From positions 1-64,000 of IMG/VR virus record IMGVR_UViG_3300046332_000238: a stretch of DNA of 64,000 nucleotides, one strand, 5' to 3'. The DNA comes from a virus. The notes beneath the pieces are model-generated. The model was not told where the DNA came from. It saw only the letters and a program-made list of their open reading frames with translations, and searched no databases. Both the position numbers and the translations under genes were made by a program. Below are positions 2,391 to 55,804 of the stretch, one piece after another; position 1 is the first letter of the stretch, and the number at the start of each line of letters is the position of its first letter.

Positions 2391-3061
2391 AAATTGCATT
2401 ATGTTTTTCTGGCCAAGCCAGATCATTTGAAAAAGGTTACGAATACTATAAACGTAACCTGTTGGATCATTATGATGTGGATGTGTATATTCATTCTTGG
2501 AAATTCCCAGAGAGTGAGAAGATGATTGAATTGTACAGACCTAGAGCCTGTCAATTTGAAACACCACTTGTCAATGATGCTAATGAGAAATACACCAATA
2601 CTCCAAACGCATCCAAATACCCTCCACAGTCTACATTCAATATGTTCTATTCGATGTTTGAATGTAGTCAGATGATTGGCAAGGAGTATGATTGGATCAT
2701 TCGTTCACGACCTGATTATGCACTGAATGTAAAGATTCCGTTTGAAGAACTAGATAACACCAAGTTATACATTCCTAATTGCAGAATGGTACCAGAAAGA
2801 GATTTTGGTAATGACCAATTTGCATTTAGTAGTTGGGAGAATATGTTATCGTATATGTCAACATATATTTTCTTAGATGATTATTATAATGAAGGAGCTC
2901 AGTTCATTGGTGAAGATTTAATGCAGGCAAATCTACGTCATAGAAATCTTTGTGGAGAAAATCTTGTTTATGTCAATATGAACAATCCATTCCCACCAGG
3001 TAAACATAATGGAACTTGGCATTCTCTGATTAGAGATGATTACGAACAATGGACAAAGTAG
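2387..3061 (+). CDS. Putative glycosyltransferase-like protein
   Basis: MKIALCFSGQARS, DVYIHSW, YDWIIRSRPD, NDQFAF; pattern typical of phage glycan clusters. Confidence 0.55.
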   Translation: MKIALCFSGQARSFEKGYEYYKRNLLDHYDVDVYIHSWKFPESEKMIELYRPRACQFETPLVNDANEKYTNTPNASKYPPQSTFNMFYSMFECSQMIGKEYDWIIRSRPDYALNVKIPFEELDNTKLYIPNCRMVPERDFGNDQFAFSSWENMLSYMSTYIFLDDYYNEGAQFIGEDLMQANLRHRNLCGENLVYVNMNNPFPPGKHNGTWHSLIRDDYEQWTK

Positions 3062-3792
3062 TAAAGGAATTTAAAGGACATTCTGGAAGTAAAGTGTATC
3101 TCATGGAAGATATGGACACACTTTACGTTAAGAAGATTGGTAATATAGAACGGAACATAGAGAGGTTAAAAGACCTTCATGATAAAGGTTATCCTGTTCC
3201 TAAATTGTATTACTATGATGAAGATTATGTTTCTATGGAATACATCCATGGAATGGATATGAAGAACTACTTGATCCATAATAATATAAACCAATTAAGC
3301 CGGTTTATAATTAACACCTTAAGCAGTTTTGGTGTTTCTTCAACATCAAAATACTACACCGATATATATGACAGCAAGATTTCATGGATTGATGGAACAG
3401 AAGGTTTTCCATTCAAAAAAGAAGAATTAATAGCAAGATTACCAGAATATCTACCTCAATCCACATATCATGGTGATATGACACTAGAAAACATCATGTC
3501 TGGTAACAAACAATTCTACATGATTGATGCTGTATCGATTGAATATGATTCATACATATTTGATATAGCCAAGATGAGACAAGATTTGGAGTGTAAATGG
3601 TTTATCAGAAATGATGATGTCAAACTGGATGTCAAGTTAAAGAATCTTCAGGATAGAATACTAGAAAAGTTCCCATTAGCAAACAATGATTACCTTCTAA
3701 TACTGATGTTGTTGCGTGTCTATAAGCATACAGTAAAAGGTGATCCAGAACATGAATTTATAATGAAAGAGATTAAAAGATTATGGAAATAA
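3049..3792 (+). CDS. APH/choline-kinase-like phosphotransferase
   Basis: GHSGSKV Gly loop, MEYIHG, HGDMTLEN catalytic loop, MID. Confidence 0.75.
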   Translation: MDKVVKEFKGHSGSKVYLMEDMDTLYVKKIGNIERNIERLKDLHDKGYPVPKLYYYDEDYVSMEYIHGMDMKNYLIHNNINQLSRFIINTLSSFGVSSTSKYYTDIYDSKISWIDGTEGFPFKKEELIARLPEYLPQSTYHGDMTLENIMSGNKQFYMIDAVSIEYDSYIFDIAKMRQDLECKWFIRNDDVKLDVKLKNLQDRILEKFPLANNDYLLILMLLRVYKHTVKGDPEHEFIMKEIKRLWK

Positions 3793-4811
3793 TTGTACCT
3801 GCAGCCGGATTGTCGACCAGATTTCCGGATATGAAACCAAAATATCTGCTGTATGATTACAAACATGAATTGATGTTAGCGAATGCCATTAAACCATATT
3901 TGTATCTGGGCATTAAAGTCAACATTGGTATTCTGAAAGAACATGATGAGAAATACAATGCGTCAGAATTCCTGAAACATGAATTTGGTCATGATATTAA
4001 TATTGTTGTCTTAGATCAACCAACCAAAGGTCCTGCTGATACTGTGTACCAGATTCTGATGAAAACTGGTTTACATACATCACCAATTCTCATTAAAGAT
4101 TGTGATAGTTTCTTCAATCATGATATTGATACAGGAAATTATGTTTGTGTTTCGAAAATATATCAACACGAAGTCTTGAAGAAATTATCTTCTAAAAGTT
4201 TTGTGGTTTCGAACGAACAAGATATCATTACCGATATTGTTGAGAAACGAGTTGTTTCGGATACATTCTGTGTTGGTGGTTACAAATTCTCCAGTGCAGC
4301 ACTATACAAAGAGACATATCAACAAATTTCACAACAGAATGAAATCTTTGTTTCGGATGTTATTGGTCGATGCATCAATTCAGGTTCAATCTTTACTGAA
4401 AAAGTTGTGACTGATTATACCGATGTTGGTACCGCACAAGATTGGTTTGAGTATAATGATAAGCCAGTAATCTTCTGTGATATTGATGGTACAATCATTG
4501 AGGCACAATCTCGTGTTGGTAAAAATGATTATTCGTCACCACCAGTTGTGTTAACCAAGAATGTTGAACGTCTTTTGGAATTATATAATAAAGGTGCTCA
4601 GATCATCTTTACAACTGCACGACAATCATACCATATAAAAGTCACCAGGAAGATACTGGACGATTTAGGATTCATTAATTGTAGTCTGATAATGGATTTG
4701 AAGAACGCTCGTAGGATCGTAATTAATGACTTTAATAATGCAAACCCATTCCCAAGAGCAGAAGCAATCAACATAGTTAGAAATTCGGATACATTATGCA
4801 ATTACCTATAA
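3783..4811 (+). CDS. Sugar nucleotidyltransferase fused to HAD phosphatase
   Basis: IVPAAGLSTRF..KPK NTP-transferase motif; C-terminal CDIDGT, TTAR HAD motifs. Confidence 0.8.
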   Translation: MEIIVPAAGLSTRFPDMKPKYLLYDYKHELMLANAIKPYLYLGIKVNIGILKEHDEKYNASEFLKHEFGHDINIVVLDQPTKGPADTVYQILMKTGLHTSPILIKDCDSFFNHDIDTGNYVCVSKIYQHEVLKKLSSKSFVVSNEQDIITDIVEKRVVSDTFCVGGYKFSSAALYKETYQQISQQNEIFVSDVIGRCINSGSIFTEKVVTDYTDVGTAQDWFEYNDKPVIFCDIDGTIIEAQSRVGKNDYSSPPVVLTKNVERLLELYNKGAQIIFTTARQSYHIKVTRKILDDLGFINCSLIMDLKNARRIVINDFNNANPFPRAEAINIVRNSDTLCNYL

Positions 4812-19096: not shown

Positions 19097-19436
19097 TGAT
19101 GTAAAGACTTTTATTGAAGCATGTGACCAAGAACGTAATGATGACAATGCTTATTTGTATCAGAAATTAATTAAAGAAGAATATACTGAATTTTGGGAAG
19201 CAGAAGCAGTAAGTGATGAAGTAGAAGAATTGGATGCTTGCATGGACATGATCTGGGTGATTCTAGGTTATTGTTACATGAAAGGTTGGGATGTGAATGG
19301 TGCATGGAATGAAGTTGCTCGTTCAAATCTAGCAAAAATTAATCCAGAAACAGGTAAAGTAAACAAAAGAGCAGATGGCAAAGTCCTTAAACCAGAAGGT
19401 TGGACTCCGCCACAATTAGAACAATTTACAAAATAA
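19089..19436 (+). CDS. MazG-like NTP pyrophosphatase (PRA-PH type)
   Basis: EEYTE, ELDACMD, SNLAK, DGKVLKPEGW. Confidence 0.8.
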   Translation: MYNDVKTFIEACDQERNDDNAYLYQKLIKEEYTEFWEAEAVSDEVEELDACMDMIWVILGYCYMKGWDVNGAWNEVARSNLAKINPETGKVNKRADGKVLKPEGWTPPQLEQFTK

Positions 19437-25106: not shown

Positions 25107-25377
25107 GAGCTATAAAGTGTCGAAATACGGAAGTCAGTCTCACAAAATTAGAGACTACAACGAAGATGATTATGATTACGAGTACGTTACTAAGAAGAAA
25201 CGTAAGTTAGAGAATGAAGAAGTGAAAAAGTCCAAAAAATATAGTAGGGAAGAAGTAGATTATTACGATCCTGCATATGTCAAAGAAAGTCGCCGTAAAA
25301 TGCGCTAAATCCATACTGTTGTAAAAAAACAACACTGGAGTTGACAATTATCCTGACTATGTTATAATGGTCACACT

Positions 25378-31318: not shown

Positions 31319-31972
31319 TCAAGCGGCTTTCAGCATAATAACCTTTTTCATTTTGTGGCCGTGGGACGGATATGCAATGGTCTCCACGGTCTTGTCATAG
31401 CAAGCACGGCAACCATTACACTTGCCATCGGTTTCATAGGCACCGCATGGCTTAGTGCCTGCTGGTGGAGTGGTACCCATTGGGTATATCACTGAACCGT
31501 GGACGCCTTTGGTGAATTCACCTACAACCGAATCAGCAGAGAAGCGAACCATTACATTGTCAAGCGCTTGCATTTTCGCTATGATGGCATTGAATTTTGG
31601 AAACTTAGCCATGCGAGTGGGCAACCAGTGTTTTACCTGTGGAGTAGCTTCCATAACAGCAAGCATTTTCTCTGCCAAGTCCACCGAATACATATCACCA
31701 GAATCGAACCAGCGGAAGAATTTCTGCTTTTTCAGTGATGATACCATATCAGCAACAAAACCTTCACGCTTCCAGTCCTCCTTGTTGAATTCACGGGGAG
31801 CCTTGACGGTCTTGAAAGCATACATGCCAGTGGTTGCATAGCAGCCAGAGCAAGCGTCAACCAGTTTGCCATTGGCACCGATTGAACCAGGACAGGTGTC
31901 CAGTGCTTGCAGGGACCAGGACAGGATGCCATCCAGCTTGGAAGTTTTGGAGAGTTTCAAAGTGGTTTTCAT
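31319..31972 (-). CDS. GP88-family Cys-rich protein
   Basis: TCPG..ACSGCYA, FRWFDSGD, HWLPTR, C..C..CRAC. Confidence 0.7.
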   Translation of the reverse strand: MKTTLKLSKTSKLDGILSWSLQALDTCPGSIGANGKLVDACSGCYATTGMYAFKTVKAPREFNKEDWKREGFVADMVSSLKKQKFFRWFDSGDMYSVDLAEKMLAVMEATPQVKHWLPTRMAKFPKFNAIIAKMQALDNVMVRFSADSVVGEFTKGVHGSVIYPMGTTPPAGTKPCGAYETDGKCNGCRACYDKTVETIAYPSHGHKMKKVIMLKAA

Positions 31973-52087: not shown

Positions 52088-54078
52088 ATGAGCAATGCAG
52101 TACGCAAAGGCAAACAAAACCGTCACGAGAAAATCACCGTAACCCTGTTGTCAGGCAAACCGGTTTCACCTGATGAAATCAAATCATGTTTTACTGGCAC
52201 AGACCAAGAATCGGTTCTGTATCGATTGTCCACTAATATCTATAACATTCGTCTTGATGGTGGTATCATCAAAGTAATTAAAGAAGGTCGTAAGGTTACT
52301 GGATATCAATTGGTGAACCATACAGAGTTTGATAAGAATGGTCGTTATGTTGGTCCAGTTGTTACACAAGCACCAGCACCTGTTGCAGATGTTACACCAG
52401 AGGTGGAATCAGTTGAATAAACGAGAGAGAGATAATACAAGATTTCTAATAACATCCGATTTAACTGCTCTTGCTGCATGGATTGACCAAGCAACTAATG
52501 ACGATATTAAATATGCCCTCGAATTGGCAAACACAGTACGATCAGAAATAGAAATCTATGAAATGGATCTTCAAGATGAAGTTGAAGATTTTACTGAAGC
52601 AAAATCGATTATTGATAGGATTAAAAATGTTTAGAAAATTTGCTAGTTGGATGAATGAAAATAATTCACAAGTTTCCTGGTTCTTCATTGGTTACTTCAT
52701 CAGTGAAGTATTTTCCTCTCTGTTAAAAGGTGACTATGTATGGGCTGCATGGTCGTTTGCCATAGTGATTATGAATTACATTGGTCGTAAACCTTGGGTT
52801 AGTTTGAATTGATGTTGCAGTAAAACAACAATGGTTGCCATTAACGGTGGCCATGATATAATGGTCACATAAACTGTTAAAAGGAGATAGTATGGCAACC
52901 CGTTCCGCAATTGGTATCGTTCGTGATGGTAAGATCGAAGGTGTATATTGTCACTGGGATGGTTATCCTGAACACCATGGTCACATCCTGTTGAATTATT
53001 ATGATGAGAATAAGACCAATGAACTAATGAATCACGGTTCACTTTCAGTGCTAGGACCAAATATTGGTGTCAAGCGTCACTTTAGTAATCCATATCCTTG
53101 GGGTACTCCTGCATATATTGCCGAAGAAGCATTGCATGAAGATACCTGTACATTTTATGGACGAGATCGTGGTGATGAAAATACGGCCTCGAAAACTTTT
53201 GATAGTGTTTCAGAATTTATGGATTATTACAGTGCCAGTGGTTCGGAATATTATTATCTTTTTAAAGAAGGCACTTGGTATTTGTTGCGTAATCCAGAAG
53301 AACTGGTTCCGTTGAATAAGATTGTTCCTAATGTTCGTGATGATTTAAAATAAGGATATATTATGTTAGAATTGTATCGTGGTTTGGTTGATATTATCGT
53401 TTCAAATTGCCGTGTACTAGAAGCAGATTTGATTCAACATATCCGCCGTGATGTAACAGCCAAAACTATTGCACCTAATACATTTGGTGTTTGTGGTTTT
53501 TGGAATTTGATGCTTGAAATAATTTTTGTAATGTTTGCAAAGATCACATTTGTTCTTGGTATTACTTTGACTAGTGTTTTGGCCATTCTATTCTTTCCAT
53601 TGAATGCTTTTATTCGTGCTTGTGCTACTGTATTCCGTACCAGTTCAGGTGAAATATATACATTGCCCGTTGAAAAAGAAACGAAACCTAAGGTGAAGTA
53701 ATGGCCATAACTAATCCATGGAGTGTTAATGGTGTAATACAAGACGATTATTCCTCAGCTTCTAGAGGTAGAATTGCTGACTTACCATATCCTGTTGAAC
53801 ATATTATTAATGGTAAAATGTTGATTGCTTCATATTCAATCATGGAATATAAATTTAGTGATCGCATACACATTGCTGGCCAGAAACAGACTGAAGATGA
53901 GATTAAAGATGAATTGTTGATGTTGTTGGTGAATGAAATGAAGAAATCAAACTTTATTGAATACACACGACAAATAGATATATTATCAGGTGCTGTTAAT
54001 TTCAAAGCAAGAATATTTGTGACACCTAACGATCAGGTAAGACTTATAAGAGAAATAGAACAGAGGAAAACAAAATGA
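52088..54078 (+). CDS. Six hypothetical ORFs (including 52892-53353, YCHWDGYP motif, and 53701-54078)
   Basis: ORF track, RBS, coupling. Confidence 0.55.
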
Positions 54079-54081
54079 AAA

Positions 54082-54741
54082 TTAATATAAAATACACCAA
54101 TTTTTATATGTCCTTCCTTTGTTAATAATTTCAGAAACACCACTTTTGTTTATATTGTAACATTTATAAAATACCCATCGAGTGCATTTTATTAATTCAC
54201 CAGTTTGTATATTGAAAAAACTATAAACTAAATTATCGAAACGTGAATTATTTTTAAAACTGTTATTTTTTAATTTGGCTTTTTCTGAACGAATTAATTT
54301 TAATTTATCCGACTTTTCTTTACCATATAATTCTTCGTATGATTTATTTTTGAATTTTTTTATTGCATTTTCTGATAATTTTTTCTTAACTTCGTTCGTG
54401 TGTGTTTTCCCGAACATACCATTTAATTCACCACACAATGTTGGACCCCTTTTTCCACCTGGAACTGTATTATAACCACCAACAATTGAATCATATTCAC
54501 TGATGAAATAAGATTCCATAACATTTAGTGTATGGTCTTTTTCTTTAGATTGATATAATACTTCCCATATAAAATTATTCCATCCATATTTTTTTATGGC
54601 ATTATAGAATTTTATATTGTTTTCTTTTTCTGATTCTCGTTTGTGGTCGGTTTTTCTTTTTGGCCAATGCGAATCAAAACCTATGTATCGTTGTTTTGTT
54701 ACAACATTGTAAGCGGAATAGATTGAATATATAGTTGACAC
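54082..54741 (-). mobile_element. Free-standing GIY-YIG homing endonuclease with NUMOD3-like motif
   Basis: SIYSAYN...RYIG, FYNAIKKYG, GYN, NGMFGKTHTNEVKKKLSE; antisense to neighbours, very AT-rich. Confidence 0.85.
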
Positions 54742-54763
54742 AGCTGTGTCCTTGTGATATAAT
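54735..54763 (+). promoter_or_regulatory. Perfect sigma70 promoter overlapping the endonuclease start codon
   Basis: TTGACA-17-TATAAT. Confidence 0.8.
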
Positions 54764-54808
54764 TTGACATAGAGTGAGTAGATGTTGACGCATCGTGACT
54801 CACATCCC

Positions 54809-54816
54809 TATTTATA
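54809..54816 (-). promoter_or_regulatory. T4-type late promoter for the endonuclease
   Basis: TATTTATA on plus = TATAAATA on minus, about 70 nt upstream of GTG. Confidence 0.75.
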
Positions 54817-54832
54817 TATTATGGAGAGTATT

Positions 54833-55804
54833 ATGTCTCAGAAAGGTAAAAAGGTCGGAAGCTTGCGTATTGCAATTGCTTCCGACCTGTAGCTGCATTT
54901 GGAGTTTGGTGACCTTGATTTGCATAATACAGATAATGCTGATGTGCTGATTCTTGGTGGTGATATTTTTGTCGCTAACGACCTTGTGAGTCTTGAAGAT
55001 TCCATTGAAATTGCAAAACTGGTACCAACACGAGCTCGTTTTCGTGCAGAGAAATTTTTTGATTTTGTAAAACGTTGCAGTGATCGGTTCCCTAAAGTAA
55101 TTTTGATTGCTGGTAATCATGAACATTATCATGGTGAGTTTCAGGATACATACAAAACAATCAAGAAAACCTTTAAAGAATTTACCAATGTGTATGTCTT
55201 GGATAAAGAATCGGTAGAACTTGATGGCACCATTTTTGTTGGTGGTACATTGTGGACTGATATGAACAAAGAAGATCCAATGACCATTCATGCAATTTCT
55301 GGTATGATGAATGACTTTAATTGTGTAACAAATGGCATAACACACCGTAAAGTGCCACTGTATAAAAAAGATGCATCGGGTGAATACATCATTGATGATA
55401 AACGTATTGGTTACATCGTAGATGGTTTTAAAATGAAAGAAGAACCTGCTAGATTTACTCCTAACCATGCGGTGGAAGACCACAAACAATTTCTTCAATA
55501 TTTGAAACTAGTAATGGAAAATAACACAGATAAAAAACCTGTTGTTGTTTGTTCTCACCATGCACCAAGTCGTCGCAGCACACATCCAAGGTATGCAGGA
55601 CAAACCCTGATGAATGGTGGATATAGTTCTGAATTGGACGAGTTCATTATGGATAGGCCAGATATCAAACTCTGGACTCATGGACATACACATGAACCTT
55701 TTGATTATATGGTTGGTGATACTCGTATCGTTTGCAATCCTCGCGGGTATAAAAATCATGAAAAGAGTGCAGATTATTTTGAGTTAAAATTTGTTGAAAT
55801 TTAA
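54833..55804 (+). CDS. Calcineurin-like metallophosphoesterase with in-frame TAG at 54890 (recoded or pseudogene)
   Basis: GGAGAG RBS, MSQKGKKVGSLRIAIASDL*LHLEF; GGD, GNHE, HHAP, HGHTH, NPRGY intact. Confidence 0.8.

Follow-up and report, generated by a model that had tools for sequence, protein, structure and literature searches.

In a synthetic stop-hop, matched codons flank an in-frame stop codon and nine nucleotides (nt) are decoded as a single residue (PMC5009743; 10.1101/2024.12.09.627546). Such hops were described in Escherichia coli by Weiss et al. 1987 and O'Connor et al. 1989, as cited in these same two sources, and in the account of Atkins et al. 2016 no natural stop-hop was known (PMC5009743). 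Programmed bypassing has so far consisted essentially of phage T4 gene 60 with its homologs, and of the case of yeast mitochondria, and the gene 60 cassette has been called unique by Manning and Atkins 2022 (10.1101/2022.08.31.505936). The same authors describe how an Asp that precedes the take-off residue weakens termination and helps bypassing, and how, in T4, the bypass insert blocks the homing endonuclease MobA while point differences do not (10.1101/2022.08.31.505936). It has been proposed that gene 60 bypassing is driven forward by the pairing of mRNA as it exits the ribosome (10.1101/2024.12.09.627546), and upstream hairpins stimulate forward frameshifts when they refold (PMC6321510). 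Here, we will examine a metallophosphoesterase gene of a freshwater phage, found in the first 64 kb of the linear 104.7-kb IMG/VR record IMGVR_UViG_3300046332_000238, which is about 63% complete, has a G+C content of 37% and resembles jumbo phages; these 64,000 nt are what we call the window. At 54887..54895 on the plus strand, within the metal-binding motif of the enzyme, an in-frame TAG (54890-92) is flanked by a candidate take-off CTG and a candidate landing CTG, and this CTG-TAG-CTG falls under the definition of the synthetic stop-hop.

We read this locus as a mobile cassette, composed of a nuclease gene and of the parts that repair the gene it invaded, whose stop codon would be passed by a +6 ribosomal hop, and we put the probability of this reading at roughly 0.7. 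With slightly less confidence, we propose that a natural, hairpin-driven +6 stop-hop is the core of a portable gene-repair module that is carried or exploited by different homing endonucleases. Sequence comparison shows the insertion, the mosaic make-up of the locus, a module that recurs and is conserved, purifying selection downstream of the stop and the co-occurrence with nucleases; from these we infer the hop, what the hairpin does and the immunity discussed below. In the scenario that we favor, a free-standing GIY-YIG cassette would have invaded a phosphoesterase gene like that of a related locus, L004, after its third codon, and would restore expression with its own early-type sigma70 promoter, ribosome-binding site (RBS) and start, followed by a 12-codon leader in frame with native codons 3-9. 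The next 30 nt or so would have been converted, six extra bases, the TAG among them, being placed in the DxH motif between its Asp codon and its His codon. Once CUG occupies the P site and UAG the A site, the peptidyl-tRNA(Leu) would unpair, the mRNA would slide by 6 nt and the tRNA would pair again with the matched CUG, so that nine bases would yield one Leu and D-L-H would be rebuilt. During the hop, the 3' arm of a GC-rich hairpin would lie in the mRNA channel, its 5' arm and inner stem being already outside, and the re-zipping of this hairpin at the mRNA exit probably drives or biases the forward slide.

A stop codon within motif I and the hairpin before it

The body of the calcineurin-like metallophosphoesterase begins with the motif I His and goes on to the stop of the gene (54896..55804, plus strand). 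It matches PF00149 with 42 bits, for a cut-off of 21.5, and phrog_1649 with an E-value of 2e-47, and motifs II-V (GD, GNHE, H, GHTH) are intact in its translation. The contiguous D-x-H of motif I is absent as written, the DNA reading D-L-stop-L-H: the leader is followed by the native I-A-I-A-S-D-L codons, then by the TAG, which sits within the DxH metal-binding motif, and then by L-H-L-E-F-G-D and 300 further codons. A scan of viral contigs returned 444 relatives of the enzyme, and the starts could be read in 79 of the best 80. All of these 79 ordinary relatives start M-K/R-I/V/L-..-S-D-x-H-L/I/V-E/D-F, with exactly one residue between D and H, and an extra leader, the hairpin described below or an in-frame stop was found in none of them. 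Skipping exactly six bases in the window restores D-L-H.

The same arrangement was then found elsewhere with a search pattern in which a stop stands between two NTN codons of any kind, after Asp and before H-L-E-F-G. With TAG, this pattern matched 4 viral and 16 metagenomic stretches, and with TAA or TGA, 4 viral stretches; once chance hits and duplicates were removed, there were 14 distinct alleles besides that of the window, which adds to the support for the hop suggested by the earlier note. Although the pattern allowed any NTN, the stop stands between two CTN codons in 15/15 alleles (14 with TAG, 1 with TAA), and in every case the codons on either side of it share their first two bases. 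CTT-TAG-CTA is the commonest set, next to CTA/CTA, CTT/CTC and CTT/CTT, and CTT-TAA-CTA is found in L129. Thus, in all 15 alleles, the take-off codon and the landing codon can be read by one tRNA, and a stop comes right after take-off. The gap itself is a single stop codon, with neither a take-off stem-loop nor a mini-Shine-Dalgarno sequence of the gene 60 type. All of these alleles also carry a leader of 12-14 extra codons, their start lying 16-19 codons before the Asp, so that the nascent chain is 19-21 residues long at take-off. The enzymes of the other stop-bearing alleles are only 44-50% identical to that of the window, and in each the frame continues after the stop. Between pairs of stop-bearing alleles, the ratio of nonsynonymous to synonymous substitution rates (dN/dS) downstream of the stop is 0.085-0.22, at dS 0.5-2.5, and such low values between diverged alleles indicate that the frame behind the stop has been translated throughout their divergence.

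Two further observations can be placed here. In L113, an extra frameshift occurs about 175 nt (some 58 codons) past the hop site, the enzyme going on in the +1 frame, and the nuclease gene of this locus is also interrupted, which may point to decay, to an error in the contig or to a further event of recoding. As for the genome of the window, it was scanned for stops between codons that match in their first two bases, with long frames on both sides; of the four places returned, only that at 54890 was retained as real. The AAT-TAG-AAC at window position 19417, which has an upstream fold of -15.6 kcal/mol, lies in the spacer before a normal ATG (19460) and is a false positive.

The second constant feature is a hairpin of 11+4 bp, seen in the minimum-free-energy fold at 54852..54888 (plus strand). 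Its 5' arm is in the new leader, its 3' arm is in the native A-S-D-L codons, and its base takes in the first two bases of the take-off CTG. The 111-nt fold of the window has a z-score of -4.67, and none of 200 shuffled sequences folds as well. The consensus that RNAalifold drew from a MAFFT alignment of the 15 sequences was poor, as the 5' arm is shifted by one base in four alleles, and the hairpins were thus compared by folding each sequence separately. The 42-nt segment that ends on the take-off codon folds with -23.2 kcal/mol in the window, and with -18.5 to -24.7 kcal/mol across the 15 stop-bearing alleles, whereas the equivalent 42-nt stretch, taken from 50 distinct ordinary alleles, averages -2.3 and reaches -6.5 kcal/mol at best. 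The codons chosen for the arm differ as well: the Asp is written GAC in 15/15 stop-bearing alleles vs 22/50 ordinary ones, and the Ser is written TCC in 14/15 vs 10/50. In L087, L113, L115, L118 and L129, changes in the 3' arm are compensated in the leader. The leader is Lys/Gly-rich and partly conserved, and the bases of the 5' arm are read in three different frames, by which L118, L119 and L120 encode other residues; the constraint therefore seems to bear on the nucleic acid and not on the peptide. Among the 11 sequences that are in register, 87.9% of the cells are paired, vs 31-49% when the partners are slid, and the core 9 bp are paired in all 11.

The cassette, its empty site and its nuclease

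The nearest relative of the window is L004, in which the enzyme is 97% identical in protein and is encoded by a contiguous gene of 311 codons (MKIAVCSDIH...); nuclease, leader and stop are all missing from it. The contiguous start is what had been predicted for a nuclease-free relative. Where the window has 818 nt (54084-54901), L004 has 24 nt (3980-4003), and the excess of 794 nt is accounted for by an inserted cassette of 788 nt (54084..54871) and by the 6 nt, as 6 of the 9 bases at 54887-54895 are extra relative to L004. The boundary of the cassette is ambiguous by 3 nt, with ATT at both edges. DNA identity between the two loci is 96% over the 200 nt up to 54083 and 95-97% from 54905 onward, and the match drops to 67% in the 21 nt before the stop and to 56% in the 9 nt after the landing codon. 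Presence and absence at a fixed site, together with a converted tract of about 30 nt, is in this sequence comparison a signature of homing. The two enzyme genes have a dN/dS of 0.068, and the tree of the enzyme joins the window to L004 as its sister, with a support of 100, within a clade made up of 19 ordinary alleles. L129 is also nested among ordinary alleles and the stop trait needs at least three changes on this tree, for which ordinary alleles were sampled around the window, a choice that biases the picture for the other stop-bearing clades. The leader and hairpin of the window are 84-89% identical to those of L084-L086, though the enzymes of these loci are only 44% identical to its own in protein.

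The comparison with L004 also shows what the insertion has separated and what it has supplied. An upstream gene (53701..54078, plus strand, from the list of open reading frames) ends with a TGA that overlaps the native ATG of the phosphoesterase at 54075; the gene and an identical ATGA overlap are present in L004 (3609-3974 and 3971), the last 200 nt of the gene being 96% identical between the two. This TGA/ATG overlap would couple the translation of both genes in the uninterrupted allele. The native RBS and the first three codons of the phosphoesterase are orphaned in the window (54063..54083, plus strand; GAGGA at 54063-67): the native ATG now starts only a junk frame of 16 codons (54075-54125), where L004 runs from the same three codons straight into the enzyme. 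L085 has a comparable orphan native start upstream of its nuclease. The new RBS (GGAGAG, 54823-28), the new start (ATG, 54833) and the 12-codon replacement leader extend over 54823..54868 on the plus strand. All of the elements that the earlier note had named were found where it placed them, and the empty allele confirms both that the gene start is split, by an insertion after codon 3, and that promoter, RBS, start and the leader forming the 5' arm of the hairpin come with the cassette. At 2028-2703 and 3043-3618, L004 has three extra genes between neighbors that are adjacent in the window, namely two small open reading frames that are membrane- or lipoprotein-like and one of 191 aa, and the region is mosaic beyond the nuclease cassette.

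The promoter of the cassette (54735..54763, plus strand) is a sigma70 site with an extended -10 box, TTGACA-17-TATAAT plus TG, which matches at 12 of 12 positions. It reads outward into the phosphoesterase, and its -35 box overlaps the start codon of the nuclease; this promoter architecture is kept in L129. Perfect sigma70 sites number 9 in the 104.7-kb record, for 0.04 expected from its length, which suggests that they are real promoters of the phage. The eight other TTGACA-N16-18-TATAAT sites are found in the window at 25341, 28720, 33361, 38508, 41095 and 60191 (plus strand) and at 31322 (minus strand), and at G000 65321 (plus strand); most of them read TTGACAAT...TGTATAAT, and they are probably early promoters.

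The nuclease gene occupies 54082..54741 on the minus strand and encodes 219 aa from a GTG start, its stop codon straddling the left junction of the cassette. It matches the PHROG homing-endonuclease families phrog_314, with an E-value of 7e-22, and phrog_5123, annotated 'GIY-YIG motif', with 5e-12, and a profile made of this nuclease and five homologs matches the catalytic domain of I-TevI (1MK0/1LN0) over residues 6-93 with an E-value of 2e-5. In the alignment of the six homologs, IY..IY, YIGF, R29, the E of YFI.E and GYN are invariant. Against Pfam PF01541, the nuclease of the window gave no hit at an E-value of 0.1, and the homolog from L086 scored 17.7 bits, under the cut-off of 22.6. The window nuclease is 63-65% identical to those of L085 and L086. 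Its own leader (54771..54816, minus strand) consists of the T4-late-promoter-like TATAAATA (plus-strand 54809-16) followed by a hairpin (54771-54806), and would function on the minus strand. The 104.7-kb record has only 8 occurrences of this octamer, the same order of TATAAATA and hairpin precedes the nucleases of L085 and L086, and the stem has compensated changes in L129, L085, L086 and a further copy at 66.9 kb in G000. The latter, outside the window at G000:C1 66909-66993 (locus L003), is a second promoter and leader-hairpin copy, 79% identical, in which the stem differences from the window copy compensate; it overlaps the start of a minus-strand GIY-YIG-like frame that stops after about 60 codons. 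Two paralogs of the nuclease, as found with tblastn, also lie outside the window, at G000:C1 67361-67834 (minus strand, 41% protein identity), just upstream of a gp59-like gene, and at 90710-91360 (plus strand, 35%), and the hop scan found no stop-hop site adjoining either of them.

Among the stop-bearing alleles, the window, L085, L086, L087, L114 and L120 have a full nuclease gene directly upstream, and L084, L111, L113, L115 and L129 have a truncated gene or a remnant there. As the comparison set, we took the 56 distinct ordinary alleles whose upstream sequence extends over 800 nt or more: a nuclease or remnant is upstream of 11/15 stop-bearing alleles and of 0/56 ordinary ones (Fisher p 5e-10, uncorrected for relatedness), and the co-occurrence of nuclease and in-frame stop that was expected across metagenomes is thus observed. 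The nucleases belong to two unrelated GIY-YIG types, phrog_314 as in the window and the I-TevI-like phrog_15526, and they stand on either strand; L129 has the same antisense arrangement, promoter and leader hairpin as the window. In L084, where only a 22-residue remnant of the GIY-YIG gene is left, an HNH endonuclease gene (999-1505 in the oriented sequence; phrog_99, E-value 9e-65) is found two genes upstream of the hop allele. The six extra bases fall inside the converted tract of about 30 nt next to the insertion point, in codons that are little free to change, and by analogy with T4 the insert probably shifts the spacing of the nuclease target and would in this way protect the allele that carries it.

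Competing readings

An artefact of assembly or sequencing is ruled out by three further freshwater runs, whose contigs match parts of the stretch with zero differences. Contig X8 bridges the left junction of the cassette, and X4 and X8 both cover the leader, the hairpin and the TAG. In the four runs examined, no contig joining across the cassette, that is, no empty allele, was seen.

Several observations weigh against the hop and the module as we read them. The third base differs between the take-off codon and the landing codon in 12/15 alleles. In the 11 in-register sequences, covariation within the hairpin is weak, with two pairs that change on both sides and a score reached by 57/500 shuffles; 7/15 pairs of the hairpin never vary, and the protein sequence also constrains its 3' arm. 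For the hairpin, we therefore rely on the difference between stop-bearing and ordinary alleles, and on those alleles that are out of register. The record is only about 63% complete. Unstimulated synthetic stop-hops are low-level (10.1101/2024.12.09.627546), and the yield here could be small. No RNA run was found among the sequencing runs that contain the stretch. Finally, no trace of a nuclease was found directly upstream in L118, L119, L122 and L124, and in each of the pairs L119/L120 and L124/L085, the first member lacks the nuclease that the second one has, while the hop module is the same in both.

These last observations bear on the idea that nuclease and hop spread together, which stands in so far as 11/15 alleles have both, and falls in so far as four have the leader and stop with no nuclease beside them and nucleases are swapped. 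Nuclease-free alleles with leader and stop were what the earlier note had named as refuting its reading, and this condition is thus partly observed. On these loci, the hop module is a portable unit that outlives and swaps nucleases, not the strict partner of one of them, and immunity to this nuclease is not required for the insert to be kept. The alternative that survives best starts from there: the hop would be real, and the 6-nt insert would be either a throttle that sets a low level of the enzyme or a neutral passenger of the leader module. We regard it as possible, though rather unlikely. It would account for the four alleles that keep the insert, for nucleases that come or go beside an unchanged module and for the two unrelated GIY-YIG types that accompany it, and gene 60 is likewise suspected of functions beyond immunity (10.1101/2022.08.31.505936). 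The T4 precedent, in which the insert alone blocks MobA, speaks against it (10.1101/2022.08.31.505936), as do the 11/15 vs 0/56 alleles with a nuclease or remnant and the position of the insert within the converted tract, where the cut site is expected.

The readings that do without a hop are much less probable. In the first, a near-cognate or suppressor tRNA would read through the stop, yielding D-L-X-L-H, with the hairpin modulating termination. The frame is indeed open and under selection, UAG followed by C is a weak terminator in E. coli, and a tRNA gene could lie in the missing part of the incomplete record. We nevertheless find readthrough improbable, as it gives no reason for a CTN Leu codon on both sides of the stop in 15/15 alleles and would put two extra residues between metal ligands that are spaced D-x-H in all 79 relatives. 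Moreover, the Pfam profile no longer aligns motif I: the protein of L004 is aligned from position 1 (52 bits), and with the readthrough product the alignment starts no earlier than position 26 (42 bits). The known stimulators of readthrough are found 3' of the stop, not 5', and the TAA of L129 argues against a TAG-specific suppressor. No tRNA gene was found in the window or in the 104.7-kb record, which counts here too, and a genome-wide reassignment of TAG was rejected, since TAG ends 5 of the 103 window frames of at least 70 aa, as an ordinary stop, and no other gene needs readthrough.

In a reading that is a shade less probable still, the gene would have been knocked out by the cassette, as a pseudogene or a purposely silenced gene, and the conservation of the stop would reflect a recent spread of the cassette. 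Decay does occur, as in L113 with its frameshift after about 58 codons and its disrupted nuclease gene, and only a small share of the hundreds of relatives bear the stop. A dead gene would, on the other hand, have no use for a promoter, an RBS and an in-frame leader, the catalytic motifs II-V are all intact, and alleles at 44-50% protein identity keep full frames, with dN/dS 0.085-0.22 at dS up to 2.5.

Least probable of all is termination followed by re-initiation, that is, an enzyme in two pieces made of a 19-21-residue peptide with the Asp and a separately started body: CTG and TTG (54899) in the window could be weak starts, but no restart codon or Shine-Dalgarno sequence is conserved after the stop across the other alleles, whose landing codons are CTA, CTC or CTT, the first ATG/GTG/TTG of L084 comes about 90 codons past the stop, we know of no precedent for a 19-residue peptide giving one metal ligand in trans, and the matched codons and the position of the hairpin would be left unexplained. 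What can be said for it is that genes split by nucleases, with pieces that reassemble, are known, namely nrdA and the T4 topoisomerase gene (10.1101/2022.08.31.505936).

Relation to known systems

In the literature, we found no natural stop-hop and no bypassing in phosphoesterases, and a search for the exact phrase CUU-UAG-CUA hop gave nothing relevant; this set of triplets may have been that of the 1987 constructs. In a DNA search against cultured phages, only 2% of a 4-kb query was matched, and the phosphoesterase is at most 36% identical to jumbo-phage proteins. The hop module gave only chance hits against 50,697 phage records, and the interval 53900-55100 had no Rfam match at E-values up to 1. 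If the hop is true, it would be the first stop-hop known from nature, and would stand as an independent and minimal counterpart to gene 60/MobA of T4. A site of 9 nt with a single hairpin of 37 nt would be the smallest conceivable bypass signal, easy to dissect, and would directly test whether mRNA pairing at the ribosome exit drives the forward slide. The module would allow nucleases to settle within the catalytic motif of a conserved phage enzyme while sparing that enzyme, and selfish nucleases would have hit twice on one solution, namely recoding that tolerates an insert in a motif that cannot be altered. The window and L004 form a clean natural pair of filled and empty site, from which it appears that the cassette can land in the first codons of a gene and replace its promoter, RBS and start. 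Such genes will be truncated by gene callers and called pseudogenes by annotators.

The synthetic stop-hops are engineered, low-level and devoid of stimulators, whereas the candidate described here is natural, is found in 15 diverged alleles and has a dedicated hairpin. Short coding inserts that are bypassed, leaving the protein intact, are also the mark of the 'byp' elements in the mitochondria of Magnusiomyces capitatus, which differ in that they are mitochondrial, present the A site with a sense codon that is unused, are largely independent of context, number 81 sites and are not linked to nucleases (PMC5009743).

On the side of the nucleases, the cassette resembles the Seg-type and I-TevI nucleases of T4-like phages by its GIY-YIG domain, by being free-standing beside its presumed target with a short converted tract, and by the late-promoter-like motif and leader hairpin upstream of the nuclease gene. 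Unlike them, as they lie between genes or in an intron, it is inserted in the first codons of its target, and the damage would be repaired by a replacement start and by recoding. A nuclease inside an enzyme gene, rescued by sequence that the element has added, is also found in the nrdA gene of Aeh1, which is split by MobE; in nrdA, two tailed proteins reassemble, whereas we propose a single chain with a replaced N-terminus (10.1101/2022.08.31.505936).

The closest system is still T4 gene 60 with MobA. In both cases, a cassette linked to a nuclease is inserted in a conserved enzyme, at a metal-binding motif, the residue just before that of take-off is an Asp, and the element supplies a new N-terminal sequence; in both, the module survives the loss of the nuclease and occurs with different nuclease families. 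The two differ in their enzymes and nucleases, a phosphoesterase with a GIY-YIG nuclease here and a topoisomerase with an HNH nuclease in T4, and in the gene itself, which is not split here into two reading frames and whose chain would be only 19-21 residues long at take-off. They differ above all in the gap, 50 nt in gene 60 and 6 nt here, in frame, which is too small for a take-off stem-loop or a mini-Shine-Dalgarno sequence, and in the structure that is conserved: here it is the 5' hairpin, whereas the 5' stem-loop of gene 60 is not conserved.

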